Origin: Sphagnum compactum
Taxonomy: Eukaryota
Length of the DNA: 64,000 nucleotides
Reading direction: 5' to 3'
Assembly: GCA_965153455.1 (NCBI GenBank)
Contig: OZ234494.1
Coordinates: 9,796,001 to 9,860,000 of the forward strand
The notes under the pieces are model-generated. The model did not search any database. It saw only the letters and a program-made list of their open reading frames with translations, and was not told the DNA's origin. Below are positions 43,732 to 56,599 of the stretch, piece by piece; positions within the stretch are counted from its first letter, which is position 1, and each line of letters starts with the position of its first letter. The position numbers and the translations under genes were made by a program.

Positions 43732-44057
43732 TGTCACACTGTGGCCTGGTCATTTACATTAAAGAAGTATCTTAAGGCAAAAGACGAATTTATCTATCGA
43801 AACTCGAATATTTCACCATGCAAAAATTATAATGTTCAAAAAATTTCTCCTTGAAACAAAACCAAAATCCTTCAAGATATTATAACTCTATAACTAATCT
43901 CAGGTTTCAACACAAGCCAAAATATTATGTTTCAAAAATCCTCATATAAAAATAAACCTATTGTTACCTAGGGGCCACCAAAATCCCTTCAGCTACTATA
44001 CTCTATAATGAATCCAAACACAATAATCGTTGCCTTGGTAGTATGCAAGGCCAATAA
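43732..44057 (+). repeat. LTR-like repeat copy 1 (3'-truncated)
   Basis: Starts TGTCACA after purine-rich aagaaggggtg; aligns with 45414-45735 (identical core aaaatccttcaagatattataactctataactaatctcaggtttcaacacaagcc). Confidence 0.75.
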
Positions 44058-45413
44058 ACTTCCAAAAGCAATATTTACTTTTTTCTGAATTAGCAAAGTA
44101 CCACCAAAACAAAACACAGATTGAATCAAAATAGATGATACCCACAACCTTGCGCAATTGGTGAGTTGCAATTACATTCATGATATTATTATGACCTTTT
44201 TTAGTGTTATGTTTTAAGCACATGGCCTTCATGTTCTTTGCTTCTAGTTTCCTTTTACTCAATTAAAATGAGAACCAAAATCATTGATAATATTAGAGCA
44301 TCTCTATGGCCACTCCCTATTTGAGAATCCACCAATGTTTGCCGTATCCAACCTAAAGTGTCCATTATTTCCCCATCCCCACTCATGGACATGGTTTCTT
44401 TTTTCAACTTTTTTGATATGAAAAATTTTGACAATTTTTTTTCCCAAAAAATAGCAAAATTAGTCAAGTTCGTAACAACAACAACAACAAAAAAAAAAAC
44501 TTATTTTCCCCAATCTTTTTGTTGAAAAATGACAAAATTTGTTGGAAAACAAAAACTGCACATAAAATACTCTGTAAAGGGTATTATATTGGTATGGGTG
44601 AAGATGTTGGACAATAGTGAAATGCAAAAGAAAGAGGCAAGTAATAGCCAACTACCTTGTACAGAGAATGCAGATGCTTCAACCCCAAGCTGCCTTGCAA
44701 AAGCATATCTCTATTTTTTCAAATTATAATTCTCTTAGTTAATTACGTGAACATTTACAGTAAAAAGAATTGATTGAGGGACTTAGTGTGCAACCCATTG
44801 TCTGATTAATTTATTAATCACCGATTAGTGGGGAGAGCACTGGTATTGTTAGAAAATTAGAATCCAAAACTAAGGGTTCACTGATGAAGTGGCAGCATAT
44901 GTTGTTAAATGTGAAAACGGTGACGATTGTCATCCAAAATTGATAAGCCAATTGATGGCCTATGTGATAATTGTTTTCAATTATGGGTAAAATGGGCATG
45001 TGTGGAGTTTGCTTCTTCATGACGATTTGTCATAAGCTTTTGGCAACTGGAATATCAATCAATTTTTGTCTCTCATCAAATGCTGGCTTGTATCCAGTGA
45101 AAGTTAGAATTGGGTCATACATGGTACCACTTCAGAACAATATCTTGTGCTTATCGATAGCATCATCATAATCAATTTGAGCTTGTGGCAAATTAGCTTT
45201 TTTGGGTGGATTTGTGAAATTTCTCATTGATGAAATTCGATATCCAAACTCGCAGCTGATTGCAGTATTGCAGAGTAGTTTGAAAAGTACGACACTTGGG
45301 GGTGCATACTTGGAAAAGGGACCGCTTGTTGGTTTCTTCTAAAGCCCACTCTCCCTCACCCTTATAATTGATTAATTAATTATGTCCATCTTTGACCATA
45401 TGAACAAGGAGTG

Positions 45414-45752
45414 TGTCACACTCTGGCCATAAAAACTTATCTTAAGGCAAAAGAAGAATTATGGAAACTCAAATATTTCACCATGCAAAAATATAAGCTT
45501 CAAAAAATCCTCTAACATAAACCCAAAATCCTTCAAGATATTATAACTCTATAACTAATCTCAGGTTTCAACACAAGCCCAAATATCATCTTTAGAAAAA
45601 TCCTCATATCAAAATAGACCTATTACCTAAGGGCCAATTTAATCCCTTAATCTACTAGGGTTTAGGGTTCTAAACCCTAGAATTCTCTAGAATGCATCTA
45701 AACAGAAAATCCTTGCCTTGGTAGGCAAGGCCAACAAGTGTTACTTGTGACA
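45414..45752 (+). repeat. LTR-like repeat copy 2 (solo-LTR-like, TGTCACA...TGTGACA)
   Basis: 7-bp inverted termini with TG..CA ends; direct repeat of 43732-44057. Confidence 0.75.
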
Positions 45753-47859
45753 AAATGAATCCCTCCTCTCTGGAGGTTGATTGTTCACTCTTTCGTATTT
45801 TCTAGGTATGGGCTGCATTTGGAGCATAGTATTTTGCTATCTAATTATGAATGGAATAAAATGTTATCATCTACCCTTAATGTAAATATAAGTGAAATAA
45901 AAATCTCAAATTATATTTCTCGGTGCCTTTTTATTTTATTAATATTTTCAAGCTTGGGTGTAAGGCTGTTCCTAATTTATTTTCTAGACGGCTATTAATT
46001 TCACCTCGAAAGAAAGAGATGAAACAACATATTTTAATTTTGAACTGATGTCAATTTTGGTAAATATGTACTTAAGTGACTCCGCAATGGTCCCTGTGGG
46101 TTGTGATAATGGATCGATGTGAACTGCAAACACACAATCAACGAGAAAGTAGTAGTCAGGTACACACACACAACTTACACCTTGGAAGGAAACAATTTTT
46201 AAAAAATAAATAAATCATGAATTTTGTGTTGTTTCCTTCAGGCAAGTTGCTGACAGACAGACAGGACTCTGCAAGTAACATGCCAATGTACATTCAGACC
46301 AGTTCCATCCCTTTGTTGATTGAGTGAAGATGGGAGAGGGGGGGGTGTGGGGCGGGGCGGCAAATGAATTATAAATGTGAGGCTAGCCAAGTCCTTCCCA
46401 TCCTGTGCCCCACACCAACTGAAGAATCATCTAGTTGACGGGGGATGAGCATTTTGCTGTTTGTGATGTGTAAAGCACCAAAGCAAACGACAGCAATAAC
46501 ATCATCAACAACAGAAGGTTTAGTTGGGTAGTTGGTTGGACCAGCAACCCACATATTATAAAAGGAACAAGAAGAAGAAGAAGAAGAAGAAAATAAAAAG
46601 GAATAAATTAATAATAAAAAATACTCAGAATAAAACACCCAGCTAGCCTGCCAAATTTGTTGTCATGCAGTTGTAGGGCAATGTAAGAGAAGCATGTAAG
46701 GGACATGAAAGGGAAAGCTTTTAGCAGAATTTAGATAGGTGTAAGTAAGTAGTACTTACATGATTTGAGAGAAAGCTCAATTGTGGGAGCCCTGGAAGAT
46801 TTAGAAGCAAGTAAGTATATATATATATATATATGTCCATGGCTCCTCTTGACTGCTGCACTTGATGTGCAAAAACACTCCTCATTTGAATTAGTTGGCT
46901 CCCTTGCTCATGGCGCATGTGTGTTGAGAATTTTACCAATGCAATAGTTTCAATTGCAATCTAGTTTTACTCCCAAGTTTGTGACAGTTCAAAGCTGCTC
47001 CAATACTATTCATGTAGCATTAGCCGCAACCTTTTGTGGATTAATTCACAAACTTTAGATTAACTGTGTAAACCCAACTCAACAACTTCTCAAATACTAA
47101 GCGTTCTATTGGATTAAGTACAATGCATTTTGTAATTGCTTGAAAAATTACAAGCGTTTGTTGTGCAATTAACGTGCCGCATGTAGGTTAAGTTTTGTTC
47201 ATATTTCATTTACTTTATTTGGAACATGAATAAAACATATTATTTTTTCAGTTCATTCCTTTCACAACAAGGTTCTTGTTCTCTAGAGTCTTCATACAAA
47301 ATTTTGTTTTTGTCTAAAATCTTCACCACAAATGTTATCTACATGTGAAACCATCTTAAAGCATTCATTTGAAAGGAGTGGTATATACTGCTTGAAACAA
47401 ATTTCATATGTGTATGATAAAATGCACCAATTTAGGTTGTCCAAAGCCCTCTCCACCAAAGACCATTCCAATTACAACGACACCGGTTGGGAATACAAGG
47501 GCCCAATATAGCCCTTACGAAGTTGTGTAATGTACAAATGAATAATAAAACATGTATGTAATTATTAGGTCACAAAAGTCATATGCTTAAGTTCCTTACC
47601 ATATAGTATTATAAACTATGGTTGAATCATATTAACCTACTTGCACACAAATTACCATGTCAATCAAGGCAATTGAGAATTAAATCAAAGGGAAAAATTG
47701 TGTGAGAAAATGTCTTGGTGGAGGTTAACTTAATGTCTATTACCATCTCTACACATGTACAAAAAATTGAGGGAATTTGGCACCATATGTGGTGAGGAAT
47801 TTTGGCATCATGGGTTTTGCACACATCCATCTCAAGTAGGTGAATACAGTTTTAATGAG

Positions 47860-50200
47860 CTTGAAATGCAGATTTTTCAAAGCAATGGCAACTCGGCATT
47901 CTCTAAACCTATGAGCATAAACCATTGAGACTCGATCAATATACCTTTCATCAGTGTCCACCTTTCCTTGATCCAAATGGTGTGTACAAACTTTCTAGAT
48001 TTGCACTATGAGAAACTCTTCACACAAACATGGAATTGTCTTACATAAAATGAAGTCTGGAAACACCAGTGCAAAAGCAAAGGGTCTTTAAAATCATGCT
48101 TCAATAGTGGGACTTACTCAAGAGTGCAGAAAAACCATGGCATACAGTAAATAGCCTAGCAACAGACTTGTGAAGTGGCAGCAACAATCTAGTTCATGGG
48201 TCGGAGGCAGAGCCCACCAAGCTCATGAAAGAATCAAATAAAACCATGACAGAAATTTACATTCCTACCGATTTGTGCACCAACTGGACTTTCATAGTGT
48301 AGGATGTCATAAAAAGTGAAGACAATGATAAGTAGCAAGCTGTGAAGATGGTTTTGTTACAAGTGGCCTAGAGCTTACTTGCACATTGCCCAGAATGAAA
48401 TTTTCCCACCTTCCCTCTTCAAGTCTAATTTGTACAACAAACACCTGCACCAGATTCAAAAACCAAATGTGATCGTTGTTGCACTTGTCTTGGTACTTGT
48501 ATTCATCTTACATAATCCTTGACTATTCAGCAAAATCAATTCCACTACTTTCAATTCATCACGATTGTCTGCTCATTCACAGCACTTGGTTTAGAATCAA
48601 TATTAAGAAAAATGACAAGGATGATGATGATGATGATGATGATGCAATGGTTGTTGATGTCCACAAGGTTAAATAAAACATTGATGTACTTGACACATTA
48701 TCCTGTTTCTCAAACACATGGATATATACAACTTGTGAAGTACACAGAAATGTCTTCTCCTCCAATTATGCAAAGTCCCTTTTGATGACAACCATTTCAA
48801 TTCAGCTGAAAGTATAGAACCCTCATCAAGCTGAATCTATCACACACATCCCCCAAAACATTTCACTACCATCACAGTCACAAAGAAGTAGAAGAGTTGG
48901 AGCTCAATTCTGGCAGTTTGTAATCCATTTCCTTTTCACCGTTGCATGCATATTGATTCTCTGCTACTCAACACCAAGTGCAAAATCCTACACTAAGAAT
49001 TATACGTGAGATTCAAGTGCTTTGAACATCTGAAGGGACTCTCTCATAATCTAGCAGTTTTTTGGAGTATTAGATTTTGGCTGCAAGAATGGAAATATGG
49101 GCAACACATTATCACAAACTATGCAGGTATTCTTCTAAGGGATGTGCATAGATCATTCAGGATAGACAAGGAGGAGGAGATAGCATCCCAATGACCATTC
49201 TTCTCTTGTGTTCTCTATGAAATGAAATATATTTCAGGGATGATTCAAATTGTTGACATGAAAAAGACAAGTTCTACTGAAGCCAAAAGTGGAGTAAATG
49301 GGGAACTTGTGATGGGGGATTTTTTGAAAACTAGATTCAGCATGAAAATGTGAGTGAGGATTTTGCATTTACCTTTTTGCTGAAGCTAAGGAAAGAGGAG
49401 TGACACTTGATTGTCTTATTTTTGAAGATGAGAATTGAGGGAAGCTTTATGGAACTATTTTGAGGCAACAAGGAAGGGTCCATTGCATGAATTTTGTTGC
49501 TTTGTGTGCTTTGATTGTGTTATACAAGTGGGTGTTTATTTTCTTGCATTGACGCCAAGCCACCAAGATGAGGACAAATTTACAAAAACAACTATGGAGG
49601 AGATGCATGTGGGTGGGTTGCCAATGCTTGTGAGGAAGGATTTAAGGAGGTTGGTGATGGCATTGAGAAGGAGAGAATACACAAAGTTCTAGAGAAAATT
49701 AGTGAAGTTCTTCGAGTTGTGTGTTGATTTTTGATAGAGCTACAGCCAAAAGTCTTCCCATGATTCTTCACCTTCCTTCAAGCGAAAAGTCTGTTGCTGG
49801 CTTCTTCTTTTTCTTCTTCTTCCGATGATTATGATGATGATGATGATGAAGAGGAGGAGGAGGAGGAGAAGGAGGAAGAGGAGTTTCAGCCGCATCTCCA
49901 GGAGCTCATGACATATCTCTTTTGGGAGTCTGCGGCAACTCGAGGAAGGATTCTGCGTCTTGTTGATACACTGGTTTTGGCAAAATGGGGTAAGTGTGAC
50001 GCGACGAACCTACAGGAGCTGCTGCGACCATTCTTGCCTCTTCCTCATTTCCAAAAGCCACCTGAATGGAATCATCACCAACCCATGAATCTTGTTCTTG
50101 TTCTTGTTCTTCCTTTTCCTTGCATGATCGATTGTTGCCATCAACGCTCTGAAACATCTCTATAAAGTCTTCTGGGTCTAGTACCATCCAAAATTCTCTC
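47860..50200 (-). pseudogene. Probable degenerate gene divergent from the SLC4 gene (acidic/Pro/His/Lys-rich N-terminus, possible MYB-like remnant)
   Basis: Frame MVLDPEDFIEMF...PKRDMS*APGDAAETPLPPSPPPPPLHHHHHHNHRKKKKKKPATDFSLEG ends at donor AG|GTGAAG (~49770) and has one in-frame TGA (49906-49908). Downstream exon-like pieces lie at ~48445-48380 and ~48005-47945 (IKERWT..DERY). Identity is uncertain. Confidence 0.3.
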
Positions 50201-50650
50201 TGCAATTCGAAATTGTATTCTAGTGTCGTCCTTCATGAATTAGCAATGGAGATTTCGCAACAAGAAGCGAAGAAGAAGAAGAAGAAGAATAAGACGAAGA
50301 AGAACCAAGTCCTCTAGTGGAATTTTGGGATTCTCGGAGTCGGACGAATGACATGCGGCATGATGACACTACTGAATTGTTGTTGCAGCAACTGTTGTTG
50401 ATCACAAGATTCTGCGACAGTTTTACCATCGGAGACGAGCTCGGAACGTCCTTGAGTATCATCATCGCCTGCTGAGAAACAAAGCCTTCAAGGATCCAGA
50501 GGAAGAAAAACTCAAGCAATGCAGGTGCATTCAAATCTCTCTCTCTCTCGAGCTCTGCTTTCCTCAATGTTCTCCAGGACTTCAGTCAGTCTTGTAGTGT
50601 TCTTGTACAGCAAACTGTTTGGCACGAAGAAGTTGTTCTTCGCGCAAAAC

Positions 50651-53600
50651 ATGGAGAAGCTCCTTGTGGGTGGAAGTGGATTTGCTTGGATGGCTGCTCT
50701 TGTGCAACTGAATTCTTTGCAAGTGTGTGAATTCCGTCCTAAACTTGTGATTGCACAGAAATTATTGTTTCCTGCTCTGCCGCAAGGATCGTCGGCGGTT
50801 GTTTTTGGCCGCGCTATTTCTGCACAAACACCAGCCTGCAATTCACAATGCTACCGCAACAGCAGCAGCAACTACGACTTCTCCCCCATCTTGCAGCAGC
50901 AAAAGGGTGCAGCAAAAGGAAGAATGCGGCCACAGAAGCTCTTGAGCATGCAGCTTCATCTTCTTGGCACCCAATGTTGTGCATCTTGTGAATCCTCCTC
51001 ACGCTCCTTAAGCTACAGAAGAAGTATCTTCAATGGACGATACGGACAATTTCCCGGGACACATTCTGCAACAATTCTTCCCCGAGAAGTAGGAGAAATG
51101 ATTCAACAAAGAAGCAAGCAATTCGCACAAGTTCGAAGAGTTAAGTGCTCAGCTACTGTAGATGGTCGAAGTCCATTGGAACAAAACTGGCAACAATCAG
51201 AAACCAGCATCAGAGAAGAGAAATGGTCCCAATCTCAAGGTTCTGAGCTTCCTCCTCCTTCTCCTCCTCCTCCTCAATTTGCAGCAGGAGCAGCCATCTT
51301 GAAGGAGCTTCACCAAAGACTTCCCTCATATGCAACAGATTTTGCAGATGGACTGCATCCCAAAGCTGCTGCTGCAATTGTTTACATGACCTTTGCATGT
51401 TTAGCACCATGTTTTGCCTTTGGCGGGTCAGTTCAATCTCTTCTTCTTCTTCTTCTTCAGAAACAATGCTCTTGATAGGCTAAGTTTACCTCAGATTCTT
51501 GAGCCAACAAAGTTCTGCTGTACATAAGCTTGCATGTCAATCTTCTGTGACCATGTCTTTGTTCACAACTGCAAGCTAGATCAATTTCTGTGACAACAAT
51601 TGTGAATATTGAGTCTTACATCACGGATCATGCAAGGCTCTGTACAGAGAATTCATCACATGATTTCAAGTCTTGATTCTTGGTGTTCTCTTTGTCTTCT
51701 TCCACATTTATTGCTATTGAAAGCTAAATTTCAAATGTTTTCTCAACAAGGTTTTGATCCAGATTCCACTGTGGGAAACTTGTAAATGTCACAGGATGAT
51801 AGCACGTCTCACTGAATGTCAAATGGGACTTGTGGAGACAATCATCAGCTGTTCAGGTGCATAGTCTCTCTTTCTAGAATTGCAGGCTCAGGAAGATGAT
51901 GAAGAGAAACTGATAACCAAGTGAACACTTTGTACTCAAAACAAATCATTAACTTCCCCATAAAGTCCAAGGAAGAAAACAGAGTTTCATACCAGAAGAA
52001 AGAGATGGGTGGGAAGAAGAATGGAAACACTGATAATGATGTACATGTAAGCAGGAGCAAAGTCTCCAAGGTTCAAAAGGAACATTTTGAATGTTGTTCT
52101 GTTTTCTGATCCATGCAGTATCAGGAAGCTTGTACTCACTGCTAGCTGCACAGCCACTCACTCTGCTTGGACCAACTGGGTTCATGGTTGTCATCACTGG
52201 TCTGCTTTACAAGGTACTCAATTGTCAGTGTGATTATGGAAGAGGAATGGAAAGTCAGGACTGCACATTTAGGTTTAGGGTTTGGAGTTTATCTTCTTGA
52301 TAAGACTTATCAGGAGTGTACTATCACATTGCTAATTTTTGCTTGAACGTGTGTGTGTGTGTGTGTGTGTGTGTATGTATTTAGGTGACAACGCAGGCTA
52401 TGGTGCCATTTCTTCCTGTCTATGGTTGGGTGGGCATTTGGACATGCTTCTTTCTTTCCTGTTTGGCAGCAGTGGAGGCCAGCAATGTGGTGAGATATAT
52501 ATACTCTAATCCTTGTTGAACATTTTGTGCAATTCATCATTTTTTTGTTGTATCTGACAGAACTTTGGTCTTAGAGCATTTGATTTACATGATTGCTGGT
52601 GAATTTTCAAGAATGTGAAAGTTCCTGAAGTCTGTGCTTCTTTGCAGCTTGTGAACTATTTGACTCGGTTTGTGGATGAGACATTTACGGCATTTATCTC
52701 TATTGGCTTCATGTCTGAAGCTTTTAAGGTAAAATTTCCAGAAGTGCAGGTTGAATCAGCTTCACCATCTTTGTCAATAGCTCACAAGGTTCAAAAGATT
52801 TGCTTACATGCAATTTTGATTGCATGCTGCAAACTATGAATTGGGTTAATCATGTAGCAATTTTTGTTGCAGGGAATAGGAAATTTATTCAAGCCCGCAA
52901 GCCCTTTTCCGATAGAGACTGCCTTGTTGTCGTTTCTTCTAGCAGGAGGAACATTCACTCTGGCAAAACTTCTAACTCAGGTCACTAACGCCCCCACCTT
53001 ACTTGTACAACTTTGACTGCATCTTCAAGTCTATCTGATAGTGCCAATCAAGTCATTACTCTTGAGTTCAGAGCTTGTGCCACTTACTCTTTTGGAAAGT
53101 CTGGCTATGGAGGTTTTTAGTCTTGCCTTCTTTTTGTGAACCAAAAACCTCTATTTTGAAAAAGACTGCAGCTACGAGCGACACGCGTGCTACTGCTACA
53201 GCCTGTTGCGGGAGTACTTGCAGATTTTGGAGCACCCTTGGCCATTCTAACAATGTCAATGGTGGGTCCAATCCTCTTCCCAATGATTCCCTTGCCAGCA
53301 ATGCCAGCTCCACCAACTATCTCCACAACTGTCAGTCGCCCATGGCTGGTACCGCTTTTCAGCCTTCCAGGATGGGCAGTTGCTGCATCTGCCATTCCAG
53401 CAGCTTTTGTCAGTCTTTTGATCTTTCTTGATCAGGTAAAGAAAACTCTTAGATTTCTTGGGTGATAAAGTTCCTTATGCTAAATTGGGTTTCCACACAA
53501 CATTGATCCTGATGAATGCAAAACTGTACATTCAGACACAAACTTGGAGATCATGCTCTGAATGTTTTAGCTTTGAGACATTTGGTGCAATTTTGCCAAC

Positions 53601-55530
53601 TCTTCCAGAATATGACAACTCGACTTGTCAACAATTCCAAAATTCCTCTGCGGAAGGGAGCAGGCTACAATCTGGACCTTGCTGCAGTTGGAGGTAATAC
53701 ACATCTATCTACATCTCTATGAAGCATTCATGAGACACAGAAAGTCATAATTTTGGAGGTTAATCTGTGATCATGTCTGTCTGCATTACCCATTTGCAAC
53801 TTTATCTCAGGGTGGGTCACAAGTAGCTCAAAAAACCATCTACAGATTAGGCCGCACTCTTGTAGAGAAAATTACACTTTCAAAGATTCACGAGCATGAA
53901 GTGAACTAAGTAATGTTGCGGGTGTTTGCTTGTGTGCAGTGATTGTGGGATTGACTTCATTGTTTGGATTACCATGGATGGTGGCATCAGCAGTTCCTTC
54001 CCTGAACCATGTGCGCAGCCTTGTCACATTATCAAAATCCATGCACATCAGGTTCAACTTACTCATCCCTGTCTCAGAATCAGATTTTTTCCAAATGGAA
54101 AAATTTACTGCAGATTCTAATATGTAACAGCATCACCATTGCCCAGGTAACAGTTTGCATGAATGGATAATATCAGAGACCATGGGTCTGAGGGATATGG
54201 CTCTGGAAGTAGAGCAAATTGCAGGTAGAAATTGAAGTTACAAACACAGCATACTGACTCTATACTTCTGCAGCAGTGGGGACAGTGAAAATGAGCCCGA
54301 AATGTATGTATTGGAAAACCGTCTGACTGGCCTACTGATATCTGTACTTTCTCTCTGTCCCTACCTGTGTTCATATTGGCTTCAAATGGACATATTTTGT
54401 TTCTATTTCTACATCCCTGGCTTGGAATTCCTGGCCAGGTCTGAAATCCATTGCATTTTATCAGGCAGCTTCTGGTATCAGACACTCAATCTGAATTTTT
54501 TATTGGTCAATTTCCCTTCAGTAACTTAGGAGCTGAAATAGCCCTCAACAGGGGTTGCCAGATGCACATTACCAGGTTTGAACTATACATGAACTTACAT
54601 AATGGGTTTTGCAGGTTTGTGTTGGGATATCTCTGCGCTTTTGGTCTGCCATTCGTCTTGTCCCTCTTCCGGTGATTAAATCAAATCCTTCTAAATGCTT
54701 GATGGAAACAGTATGCACTCTGAGTCATTACAGCAGAAATCATGTTCTCTTTGCACAGCCAATTAGAGGCTGTAACATGTAACAATTCTCATCTTATGGG
54801 CGTTCACCTGGGACATTGAATGCTTGGGGTGATGGTAATGTGGGTACTCTTTATGTGCCACCAGGTCACAAGTGGTCTCTTTGTATTCATGGCACTTGGC
54901 ATTATAAACGGGAATCAGTTTGTAGAAAGGTGATCTGCAGTTAAAACCTTATCAACTCTGTTATAGCACACTCAATGTGTTCAAAGTCTCAAATTCACTT
55001 CTTGTGCAAAGTATAGTTAGCCAAGAGAAGAGAGAAGTTCCTAATTTACCAGTTTTCAAATCTGGAGGGTGATCTATCTCATAAGTTGTGTTCTTTCTGC
55101 AACTTCATTCTTGCTCATGTGGTGATGATGGGTACAGGGTGAAATTGTGGTTATATGACCAAAAGCTGGTTTCAAAGCACGAGTTTATGAAGGATGTGCC
55201 ACAGCATGTAGTACATGCTTTCACAGCTCTGCAGCTTGCATGCTTGTGGGGCCTTTGGTCACTGAAACAAAGTGCTTGGGGTATGCCAGCATTCTTCTCC
55301 TATTCCATTTTCCCACCTTCATCACAACTTCATGCATGCATGTACTGTTTTCTTCAATTCAGTATTTTCTGAAACTGTCAAAAGGATTGAAGAAGTCTGA
55401 CTCTTGGTTGCAACGGTTTTCTGCAGGTATCACATTTCCAATTCTGATTCTAGCACTAGTACCCATACGCCAGCTCCTGGCAGCACGCATTTTCCCTCCA
55501 CAGTACTTGGCTGTGCTTGATCCACACTAA
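50651..55530 (+). CDS. SLC4 / HCO3- transporter family anion transporter (non-BOR type) with long N-terminal transit-peptide-like extension, ~708 aa
   Basis: 14 hand-spliced GT-AG exons: 50651-51426, 51795-51856, 52119-52213, 52385-52489, 52648-52728, 52873-52980, 53172-53435, 53609-53693, 53940-54051, 54274-54343, 54615-54671, 54865-54929, 55138-55280, 55427-55530 (2127 nt, open frame). Motifs: RLPSYATDFADGLHPK, FACLAPCFAFGG, QPLTLLGPTG, YLTRFVDETF, LADFG, RPWLV, LIFLDQNMT, KGAGYNLDL, GLPWMVA, ENRLTG, GNQFVER, FPILILALVPIR. Upstream in-frame ATGs exist at 50519 and ~50567. Confidence 0.9.
52349..52374. repeat. (GT)n microsatellite in SLC4 intron 3
   Basis: About 13 GT units just upstream of the 52385 acceptor. 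Confidence 0.85.
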
Positions 55531-56599
55531 AGTGATAGACAAAACTCAATCCACAGCTATTGCATTCTGATCTGCAGCTGCTCCAGAAATCTGATCCTGC
55601 ATGAAAGATTGAAACTTTTGTTCAATTTCTAGAAGTGAAAAGAATAGTTGAAGTCTAAAATTAGCTGAGGGAGAGAGATGTATGACAAAGTTGATGTGCA
55701 TTACTGGTTGTGGCTCAGCTGCAACAATTGCTTGCTGAGAGGACATCCAGGAAAGCCATATTATGTGATCTTTCTCTTTGATTGCCATTGCCAACGATAC
55801 TGACTCTTGTGGTACTCAAATTCCTGCAATTGCCACCGTTCACAGGTATTACCAGCATTGTGCAGGTATCAGAGACATGGCACCTGATCTCCACCAGTTC
55901 TTTAGTTTCTCAGATGGTGATATTGATTGGCAAATGATGCGCAAGATATTGTGACCACCAAGTGCGCCAACAAAGAAGTATACGTATACCTTTCTGGTGG
56001 AGGAATATGTAATTTGATACTGAGAGTTAATAGGTAATACACAAAAGCTTACACCTAGTTTTACAAGTACTATAACTCTAATGAAAATATATTATTTGCA
56101 GCAATAATACATATATACACATGTTACGAGCAGAGTTTTGTTTGGAATTGAGTTTTTGAACAGACCAGGCTAGTCTTTGAATTAAGTACTCTTGAAATTT
56201 TCATACCAGCCTGATCATGCTATTTATTATTGGGTGCTTTTCAAACTTTCATACCATTTTGGTCTCGGTGTTGGGTCCGAGGCTGGTTTTTGGCTGGTAT
56301 GTATGTACTTGACATTGAACCTCATCCAAAATTGGTACAAAAGGTTTGTATTACCTCAAGTCTCTTTTGGCAATAACTTGTGCTGCAAATATTCAAATGG
56401 CTCATGTGAGTTCATTTTCGACATTTACACGTCAATAACTTTCTAACGACATAAAGAACTCTTCAATGTGAGGTGTTTTGACTCCTGCAATCGAACTCTA
56501 AAGTTTCAAGAGTCCGACTAAGCTGGTGTGGATACAACACTAGTATTGACTCAGGTCACACCATCCCCGAAAGATCCTTTGCTTATTATCAGTGTTGAT

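Follow-up and report, generated by a model that had tools for sequence, protein, structure and literature searches.

What kind of SLC4 transporter does the moss Sphagnum compactum encode on contig OZ234494.1, and to which membrane would it be sent? We analysed a window of 64,000 nucleotides (assembly GCA_965153455.1, contig positions 9,796,001 to 9,860,000, forward strand; positions below are those of the window), in which a transcribed nuclear gene at 50519-55530 (+) encodes an SLC4 protein of 674 residues in 15 coding exons. An initial annotation, made from the letters alone, had proposed a bicarbonate-type SLC4 transporter outside the BOR borate exporters with a plastid-transit-like leader. 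With moderate confidence, we read the product as a non-BOR SLC4 protein of the clade of the Chara protein CaSLOT that would carry a cleavable organellar presequence, likely reside in the plastid envelope and perform cation-coupled acid-base transport.

Identity of the gene as a member of the SLC4 family

The stop-to-stop reading frames of 50.5-55.5 kb (+) contain the motif-bearing peptide in pieces, the gene being split and eukaryotic. A search with a single exon as query matched 4 proteins among 621 candidates. Three of these are annotated Sphagnum proteins with 94-96% identity, from S. balticum (P0001), S. fallax (P0002; locus tag BDL97_02G069600) and S. magellanicum (P0003; CY35_02G067100), and the fourth (P0004) is a transcript-derived moss protein. 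Using the S. balticum protein as guide, we placed 13 GT-AG introns downstream of the ATG at 50924, and the resulting spliced product was identical to the S. balticum protein at 600 of 617 residues. When the translated exon pieces were compared with the Pfam profile PF00955 (HCO3_cotransp), 7 of 8 matched at E ≤ 0.1 and 3 passed the curated 27-bit cut-off alone; the precomputed domains of the orthologues consist of PF00955 only. The three motifs from which the initial annotation had recognised an SLC4 protein are all present in the spliced product, with QPLTLLGPTG encoded at 52151-52180, LIFLDQ/NMT spanning the 53435/53609 junction (53418-53617) and GLPWMVASAVPSLNHVRSL encoded at 53966-54022. 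The animal counterparts that it had cited were borne out in alignments (NBCe1 QPLTILSSTGP, IFMDQQIT and LPWYVAATV; AE2 IFMETQIT and LPWLAAATVRS), and the bacterial one in a planctomycete sequence (GLPWLVAATVRSLNH).

The family itself has already been described. Quade et al. 2021 (PMC8738779, cited throughout for the part of the paper available to us) cloned CaSLOT, termed it a 'primitive' Slc4-like protein and placed it nearer to a bacterial Slc4-like protein (48%) than to AtBOR1; in oocytes it gave a variable conductance activated by alkaline pH, which suggests an OH-/H+ conductance. Because Physcomitrium XP_024395568 and Marchantia PTQ38262 were already listed there as CaSLOT homologues, the Sphagnum gene counts as a further member of a reported family, and the novelty claimed for it in the initial annotation was overstated. 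The likeness to CaSLOT comprises membership of the same clade (100/100), the sequences D-Q-N-[IM]-T in transmembrane segment (TM) 8 and A-S-[AT]-V-P-S in TM10, and the lack of a Band3 cytoplasmic domain; CaSLOT and the Marchantia member are 59% identical.

The N-terminal leader and its predicted destination

Counted from the ATG at 50519, about 175 residues precede the membrane domain, fewer than the ~215 of the initial annotation, whose description of an acid-poor leader with RRVKC nevertheless holds. Residues 1-132, up to RRVKC (51134-51148 in the spliced product), comprise 18 Ser, 4 Thr, 12 Arg, 6 Lys and 15 Gln versus 1 Asp and 3 Glu, with the first acidic residue at position 42, and the 43 residues that follow are acidic and Pro-rich. 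In the AlphaFold2 model of the S. balticum orthologue, the predicted local distance difference test score (pLDDT) was <50 over P0001 residues 1-53 and 64-93, which indicates a disordered leader. No Pfam domain was found in the leader, and Band_3_cyto (PF07565) was thus not detected. The leader has the traits of a transit peptide in being N-terminal, hydroxylated, net positive, acid-poor and unstructured.

The first 50 residues of 13 embryophyte rows carry a net charge of +2 to +7 with 0-3 Asp and Glu residues, and several of these N-termini (ferns, Marchantia) begin with 'MA' and are Ser-rich. CaSLOT differs in having an acidic N-terminus (net charge -7 with 10 acidic residues in the first 50; 19% Asp and Glu overall), and acidic values were likewise obtained for Closterium P0162 (-4; 7 acidic residues), Closterium P0164 (-3; 6) and the zygnematophyte transcript P0161 (-1; 5). 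When the 100 residues that precede TM1, a region otherwise unconserved, were aligned locally, a motif [VI]-x-[CA]↓[ST] (the arrow marks the putative cleavage point) lined up across mosses, liverworts and ferns. Both Sphagnum paralogues have it as V-K-C↓S-A-T, other mosses as V-[KR]-C↓x-[SA]-A, liverworts as [TR]-C↓S-I-A, and ferns as N-V↓S-A, Q-A↓S-G and Q-A↓I-G. The consensus for stromal processing is (V/I)-x-(A/C)↓A, which the embryophyte motif resembles. The embryophyte leaders are thus basic, acid-poor and furnished with a cleavage-like motif, unlike that of CaSLOT; this presequence-like leader, common to embryophytes and mostly absent in charophytes, is new with respect to the literature that we searched.

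In our reading, the basic, hydroxylated, acid-poor and disordered N-terminus of ~130 residues would be a cleavable organellar presequence, of a character common to the moss, liverwort and fern orthologues and not found in Chara or in most Closterium sequences. Cleavage would occur near V-K-C↓S-A, the most likely destination would be the plastid envelope, and the protein would there couple the transport of acid-base equivalents (HCO3-/CO3 2- or OH-/H+) to that of a cation, with a role in stromal pH control or inorganic-carbon supply. Plastid targeting, as predicted from the leader, is plausible because composition, disorder and the conserved cleavage-like motif all fit it, and plastid (or other organellar) targeting is the leading reading of this presequence-like segment. 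Several points weigh against it. The N-terminus of Closterium P0163, a longer model, is also basic (+5; 2 acidic residues), so that the charge contrast between charophytes and embryophytes is not clean; 132 residues up to the motif is long for a transit peptide; and in the account of Quade et al. (PMC8738779) the N-termini of the moss and liverwort proteins are 'predicted to be cytoplasmic' and CaSLOT is treated as an OH- transporter of the plasma membrane.

These last statements lead to a different account, which we consider somewhat unlikely, in which the same protein resides in the plasma membrane or endomembranes as a CaSLOT-like, pH-activated OH-/H+ (or HCO3-) pathway and the leader is a cytosolic, disordered regulatory tail that replaces the structured Band3/EIIA-type domain of bacterial and animal relatives. 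CaSLOT, the sole characterised member of the clade, was studied as a plasma-membrane conductance (PMC8738779), in bacterial relatives the corresponding position is occupied by a cytoplasmic N-domain (PF07565+PF00359), and disorder alone cannot tell a tail from a presequence. The cytoplasmic assignment came, however, from InterPro topology and not from a targeting predictor (PMC8738779). Moreover, the N-termini change from acidic (Chara and 2 Closterium rows) to basic, acid-poor and often 'MA...S-rich' (13 embryophyte rows), and this switch, taken with the conserved V-x-C/A↓S motif, is the pattern to be expected of a presequence. Our literature search found nothing on the location or function of moss, liverwort or fern members: a Physcomitrella N-terminome paper (PMC11450134) gave no match in one small supplement, and the words 'bicarbonate', 'anion' and 'HCO3' do not occur in the main text of Yue et al. 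2012 (PMC3493653).

A mitochondrial or dual-targeting presequence, with the transporter in the inner mitochondrial membrane, would suit an Arg-rich, acid-poor leader as well, and vertebrate SLC4A11 is reported in mitochondria (PMC8434753). We regard this as quite unlikely, since the high Ser and Gln content, the length of >100 residues and the V-x-C↓S-A motif suit a plastid better by the criteria generally quoted.

Transcription and the 5' end of the gene

The extent of the leader depends on the 5' end of the transcript. RNA was mapped on 49900-55900 from one polyA RNA-seq run with the same species label (351 reads) and from the contigs of three moss or plant metatranscriptomes. The polyA first mates map to the - strand, which is the result that + strand RNA gives with most stranded libraries, and 12 of the 13 introns downstream of the ATG at 50924 were seen as GT..AG joints in 3-12 polyA reads each; the remaining one, 52213/52385, is missing from the 15 joints listed (of 20), and the (GT)n repeat at that place was skipped.

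Upstream, polyA depth fell to 0.38 in 50503-50703, versus 4.09 and 6.21 in the flanking bins. The 5' contigs of the three metatranscriptome runs begin at 50103, 50153 and 50235 and end at 50511-50524, and the next contig begins at 50756 in all three sets. The DNA reads ATG CAG/GTGCAT ... TTGCACAG/AAATTA, with boundaries CAG/GT...CAG/AAA, and the contig ends are offset by 3 nt (50756 versus 50759) because CAG is common to both splice borders. Orthologous annotations run across the same junction, as ...AMQ/NLLFPALPQGSS in S. magellanicum and MQ/PQGSS in S. fallax. Since depth, contig ends, splice consensus and orthologous annotations agree, we infer that 50525-50758 is a canonical in-frame intron (the joint 50524/50759 was not among the 15 joints listed, of 20). 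The ATGs at 50567 and 50651 would therefore be intronic, so the start at 50651 preferred in the initial annotation has to be given up, and that at 50567 with it. The likely translation start is the ATG at 50519, the first in-frame ATG past the TGA at 50453, with A at -3. Against this stand 7 upstream ATGs and the annotation of the S. balticum protein from the ATG equivalent to 50924, which leaves the start codon less than certain; from either start (50519 or 50924), at least 118 residues precede the membrane domain.

Some further observations concern this region. The intron holds an open reading frame that opens with MEKLLVGGSG (50651-50680), close to the N-termini annotated for orthologues in other mosses (Physcomitrium MEKLLSSGSG, P0004 MEKLLVTGS, Ceratodon ..AMEKLLGSGS). 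This segment, over which polyA cover is essentially nil, may represent a former start exon of ancestral mosses that is now spliced out in Sphagnum; a search for a tandem duplication as its source gave only chance-level repeats of 12-14 nt. Microsatellites of the types (CTT/GAA)n and (GT)n at 50257-50307, 51244-51281, 51438-51466 and 52339-52388 draw cross-mapping reads, with a 'goes back' joint 51458>50091 in 81 reads, many loose ends, and + strand first mates at 49900-50300 and 51307-51507. We attribute these odd joints and + strand mates to artefact rather than to antisense RNA. In one metatranscriptome contig (X2) the acceptor lies at 53199 (52977>53199), 30 nt downstream of the main acceptor (>53169), a splice seen in none of the polyA reads; it would remove 10 residues in frame.

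Distribution and origin of the clade

Word-index searches with P0004 (156 matches among 7996 candidates) and with Marchantia P0005 (740 matches among 8000 candidates), of which the best 120 each were listed, returned relatives in mosses (Ceratodon; Physcomitrium, with one gene listed, named 'anion exchange protein 4-like' at NCBI; a second Sphagnum gene), liverworts (Marchantia MPTK1_6g01490, which is PTQ38262; Riccia), ferns (Adiantum, two species; Ceratopteris KP509_16G031700; a Pteridium transcriptome) and charophytes (the Chara australis 'SLC4-like OH(H) transporter', which is CaSLOT, and several Closterium proteins). No seed plant was among these listed matches (best 120 and best 120).

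Trees were built with FastTree (160 rows), with IQ-TREE in a quick posterior mean site frequency (PMSF) run (71 rows) and with IQ-TREE in a careful LG+G4 run (34 rows). A streptophyte clade including CaSLOT and the gene of the window received support of 100 (16 rows, PMSF) and 100/100 (10 rows, LG+G4). Within it Chara branches first, followed by Zygnematophyceae plus embryophytes (92/89) and then the embryophytes (96/97); this is the species order, and inheritance within streptophytes therefore looks vertical. The distribution from Chara to ferns fits a streptophyte-ancestral gene missing from seed plants and is supported as a pattern, in agreement with the initial annotation.

Two observations on membership belong here. 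Closterium, a member of the Zygnematophyceae, has CaSLOT-clade genes (P0162-P0164, P0199, P0217, P0053), which contradicts the statement in PMC8738779 that no homologue is detectable in that class. The second Sphagnum paralogue lies on another chromosome (BDL97_15G077300 / CY35_15G080000; P0157, P0285-P0291), evolves more slowly, carries KVKC↓SATV and branches before the gene of the window plus the other mosses (support 85-96).

Outside the streptophytes, the probable sister group consists of red algae and algae with red plastids, namely Cyanidioschyzon ('probable anion transporter'), Porphyridium ('Band 3'), Pyropia, Vitrella and Phaeomonas, with support of 84 (FastTree) and 81/85 (34-row LG+G4); the relation was not recovered as resolved under PMSF and so stands in 2 of the 3 trees. 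The red-lineage proteins have the TM8 Asp in common with the Sphagnum gene and differ in their identity of about 40% and in Gln at the central TM10 position (16 of 17 rows). The next matches listed after the streptophytes are from Planctomycetota, with 44-51% identity and Band_3_cyto plus PTS_EIIA_2 N-domains. The proteins of Planctomycetota and Bacteroidota resemble the plant protein over the membrane domain, in TM8 Asp and Thr and in a GLPW...SLNHVRSL block, and differ in having a central Arg (16 of 22 bacterial rows) and a structured cytoplasmic N-domain in place of the Pro and the disordered leader of the plant protein. Hundreds of such bacterial proteins (P0165-P0410) have Band_3_cyto and PTS_EIIA_2 fused to an SLC4 membrane domain. 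Automatic naming often gives them as 'PTS sugar transporter subunit IIA', a name that fits the small N-domain only.

Horizontal transfer of the streptophyte clade from Planctomycetota-like bacteria, in place of algal inheritance, would explain why planctomycete proteins are the best non-streptophyte matches (44-51% versus about 40% identity to red algae), and an approximately unbiased (AU) test, run with the 34-row LG+G4 tree, left streptophytes plus planctomycetes as one clade unrejected (log-likelihood difference 16.3, p 0.129). We think such a transfer improbable. The red-alga and red-plastid clade is the sister in the free trees that resolve the relation, and the streptophyte branching tracks the species tree, which would put any transfer before Charophyceae.

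More tentatively, and with rather less confidence than we place in the targeting itself, we suggest that an ancestral CaSLOT-type SLC4 protein of the plasma membrane may have gained a plastid transit peptide when land plants arose and become a cation-coupled HCO3-/OH- transporter of the chloroplast envelope. Mosses (with two copies in Sphagnum), liverworts and ferns would then have kept it, and seed plants would have lost it.

Substrate-site residues, transport mode and relation to BOR exporters

The S. balticum orthologue was searched with phmmer against all Protein Data Bank (PDB) chains, and 17 distinct sequences matched. Scores were 271 bits for NBCe1, 257-270 for AE2/AE3, 263-264 for NDCBE, 263 for NBCn1, 232-235 for AE1, 197 for SLC4A11, 148 for AtBOR1 and 80 for yeast Bor1p, that is, 232-271 bits to SLC4A1-10 versus 148 to AtBOR1. 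The AlphaFold2 model of this orthologue, which is 97% identical (pLDDT 83.7, >90 over most of the membrane domain; predicted TM-score 0.81), has the SLC4 transmembrane fold. Foldseek ranked AE2, AE3 and AE1 first (AE2 8jni: TM-score 0.91, root-mean-square deviation 2.2, 32% identity), with AtBOR1 at TM-scores of 0.72-0.87 and 26% identity.

Site residues were compared in an alignment of 86 rows, with equivalences from the NBCe1 alignment given in S. balticum P0001 numbering (+57 gives the numbering of the window's protein). T208-G209 in TM3 correspond to NBCe1 T485-G486, D405 and T409 in TM8 to D754 and T758, V449-V453 in TM10 to V798-V802, and P454 in TM10 to the central Arg of AE1-3 (AE1 R730). 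T208/G209, D405/T409 and P454 are kept in 20 of 20 streptophyte rows. According to a 2026 review (PMC13263692), the TM8 Asp...Thr and the TM3 Thr-Gly coordinate the cation in Na+-dependent SLC4 proteins, AE1-3 and SLC4A11 have Glu at the TM8 Asp position, and the TM8 Asp of AtBOR1 is a likely H+ site. The AE-type pair (AE1 E681 and R730) is not present in the Sphagnum gene, which has Asp and Pro there instead. Because the TM8 Asp and Thr are present and Pro stands at the central-Arg position, we infer that the probable mode is transport of HCO3-/CO3 2- or OH- coupled to a cation (H+ or Na+), and not Cl-/HCO3- exchange of the AE type; against this prediction it must be said that the only functional data of the clade are the weak, variable oocyte currents of CaSLOT. 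The Na+-coupled bicarbonate transporters NBCe1/SLC4A4, NDCBE/SLC4A8 and NBCn1/SLC4A7 are among the best PDB matches (263-271 bits), with the SLC4 fold and the TM3 and TM8 cation-site residues in common. They differ in having a Band_3_cyto domain and a large extracellular loop, both absent from the gene, in Ile or Arg where the gene has Pro at central TM10, and in forming a separate clade (99/95 branch).

The trees hold BOR-type proxies and no land-plant BOR, the land-plant BORs falling below the best 150 listed representatives. The proxies come from a clade within those 150: for its members P0087 and P0139 the best PDB matches are Bor1p, at 341 and 271 bits, and AtBOR1, at 275 and 247 bits, and for a third member, P0068, the best match is AE2. 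The proxies and the animal SLC4 proteins stand apart from the gene of the window in all three trees. In the 34-row LG+G4 tree the proxies form a 100/100 clade of their own, and the 99/95 branch parts the streptophyte clade from proxies and animals. Forcing the streptophyte clade and the proxies to be sisters was 20.7 log-likelihood units worse (AU p 0.062), a borderline result that does not reject the arrangement and that addresses the sister relation only, each clade being 100/100 alone. The BOR-type sequences D-H..S in TM8 and N-G-[LV]-I-P-Q in TM10 occur in 10-11 of the 16 'rest' rows, which include the BOR-type proxies, and the window's gene has D-Q..T and V-A-S-A-V-P at these sites, so that the BOR signature is absent. 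Of the BOR motifs cited in the initial annotation, the D-H and N-G-[LV]-I-P-Q elements were seen indirectly, in the proxies. On PDB scores, site residues and trees the gene is an SLC4 outside the BOR type, as had been proposed; with AtBOR1 and Bor1p (148 and 80 bits) it has in common the superfamily and fold and, with AtBOR1, the TM8 Asp, and it differs in lacking the BOR TM8 and TM10 signatures and in that BOR-type proxies cluster elsewhere.

That the protein nevertheless functions as a borate exporter is very improbable: the TM8 Asp also found in AtBOR1 (PMC13263692), the suggestion by Quade et al. that boron transport is possible for Slc4-like proteins (PMC8738779) and the borderline AU result would allow it, but D-Q and V-A-S-A-V-P replace the BOR-type D-H and N-G-x-I-P-Q, the score to AtBOR1 is far below those to bicarbonate transporters, and a long leader precedes a domain that in BOR begins at residue 2-3 (PMC8738779).

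Gene model and feature coordinates

Three public Sphagnum annotations of this gene (window 50376-55530 compared with P0001-P0003) disagree. The S. balticum model begins at the ATG equivalent to 50924, the S. magellanicum model has its start further 5', in a different frame, and stops short, and the S. fallax model lacks the exon of 27 residues at 52648-52728, which RNA joints support here. The present analysis fixes the gene model where these annotations conflict (Table 1). The donor of exon 2 (CGG/GT) was joined to 51795 in 11 polyA reads. An open reading frame scan of the upstream region 44000-50400 gave nothing of note.

Table 1. Features of the SLC4 gene in window coordinates (UTR, untranslated region; uORF, upstream open reading frame; model, gene model guided by the S. 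balticum protein)
Feature	Coordinates	Strand	Basis
5' UTR, 5' end approximate; 7 upstream ATGs, uORFs of 2-40 codons	50103..50518	+	RNA contigs, list of upstream ATGs
Likely start codon plus one codon (ATG CAG, MQ), end of exon 1	50519..50524	+	First in-frame ATG after TGA 50453
5' intron, 234 nt, GT..AG, multiple of 3; holds ATGs 50567 and 50651	50525..50758	+	Depth, contig ends, sequence
Presequence-like leader, residues 3-132, ends in RRVKC (51134-51148)	50759..51148	+	Composition, AlphaFold2 pLDDT, no Pfam domain
Acidic Pro-rich linker, 43 residues, from cleavage-like motif to membrane domain	51149..51277	+	
Start of SLC4 membrane domain (FAAGAAILKEL...), rest of exon 2	51278..51426	+	PF00955 profile positions 6-50
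Coding exon 3	51795..51856	+	Model; joints 51425/51794, 51853/52116
Coding exon 4, TM3 site QPLTLLGPTG; Thr265 equivalent to NBCe1 T485	52119..52213	+	Model, NBCe1 alignment
Coding exon 5	52385..52489	+	Model; joint 52488/52647
Coding exon 6, 27 residues	52648..52728	+	Model; joints 52488/52647, 52726/52871
Coding exon 7	52873..52980	+	Model, RNA joints
Coding exon 8; central TM8 Asp462 (53430-53432) equivalent to NBCe1 D754	53172..53435	+	Model, NBCe1 alignment
Coding exon 9; Thr466 (53615-53617) equivalent to NBCe1 T758	53609..53693	+	Model, NBCe1 alignment
Coding exon 10; TM10 GLPWMVASAVPSLNHVRSL; Pro511 (53996-53998) at position of AE1 R730	53940..54051	+	Model, alignment
Coding exon 11	54274..54343	+	Model, RNA joints
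Coding exon 12	54615..54671	+	Model, RNA joints
Coding exon 13	54865..54929	+	Model, RNA joints
Coding exon 14	55138..55280	+	Model, RNA joints
Coding exon 15 with stop codon (55528-55530)	55427..55530	+	Model, RNA joints
3' UTR, reaches at least 55900	55531..55900	+	PolyA depth 14.6-17.2 in 55528-55900

Implications

Land plants are not known to have a bicarbonate transporter in the chloroplast envelope, and efforts to build CO2-concentrating mechanisms into crops depend on envelope transporters from other organisms, whose targeting and activation are difficult. A land-plant SLC4 protein with a native presequence-like leader would be a directly testable candidate for such an envelope transporter. 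If our reading is correct, non-seed land plants would own a native envelope bicarbonate or pH transporter that seed plants lack, and the gene would offer a case study of organelle retargeting at the transition from water to land. The CaSLOT family is extended to ferns and Closterium, and its published absence from Zygnematophyceae (PMC8738779) is corrected. In Sphagnum, which grows in wet, acid peat, a two-copy SLC4 acid-base transporter could bear on carbon uptake or pH handling.

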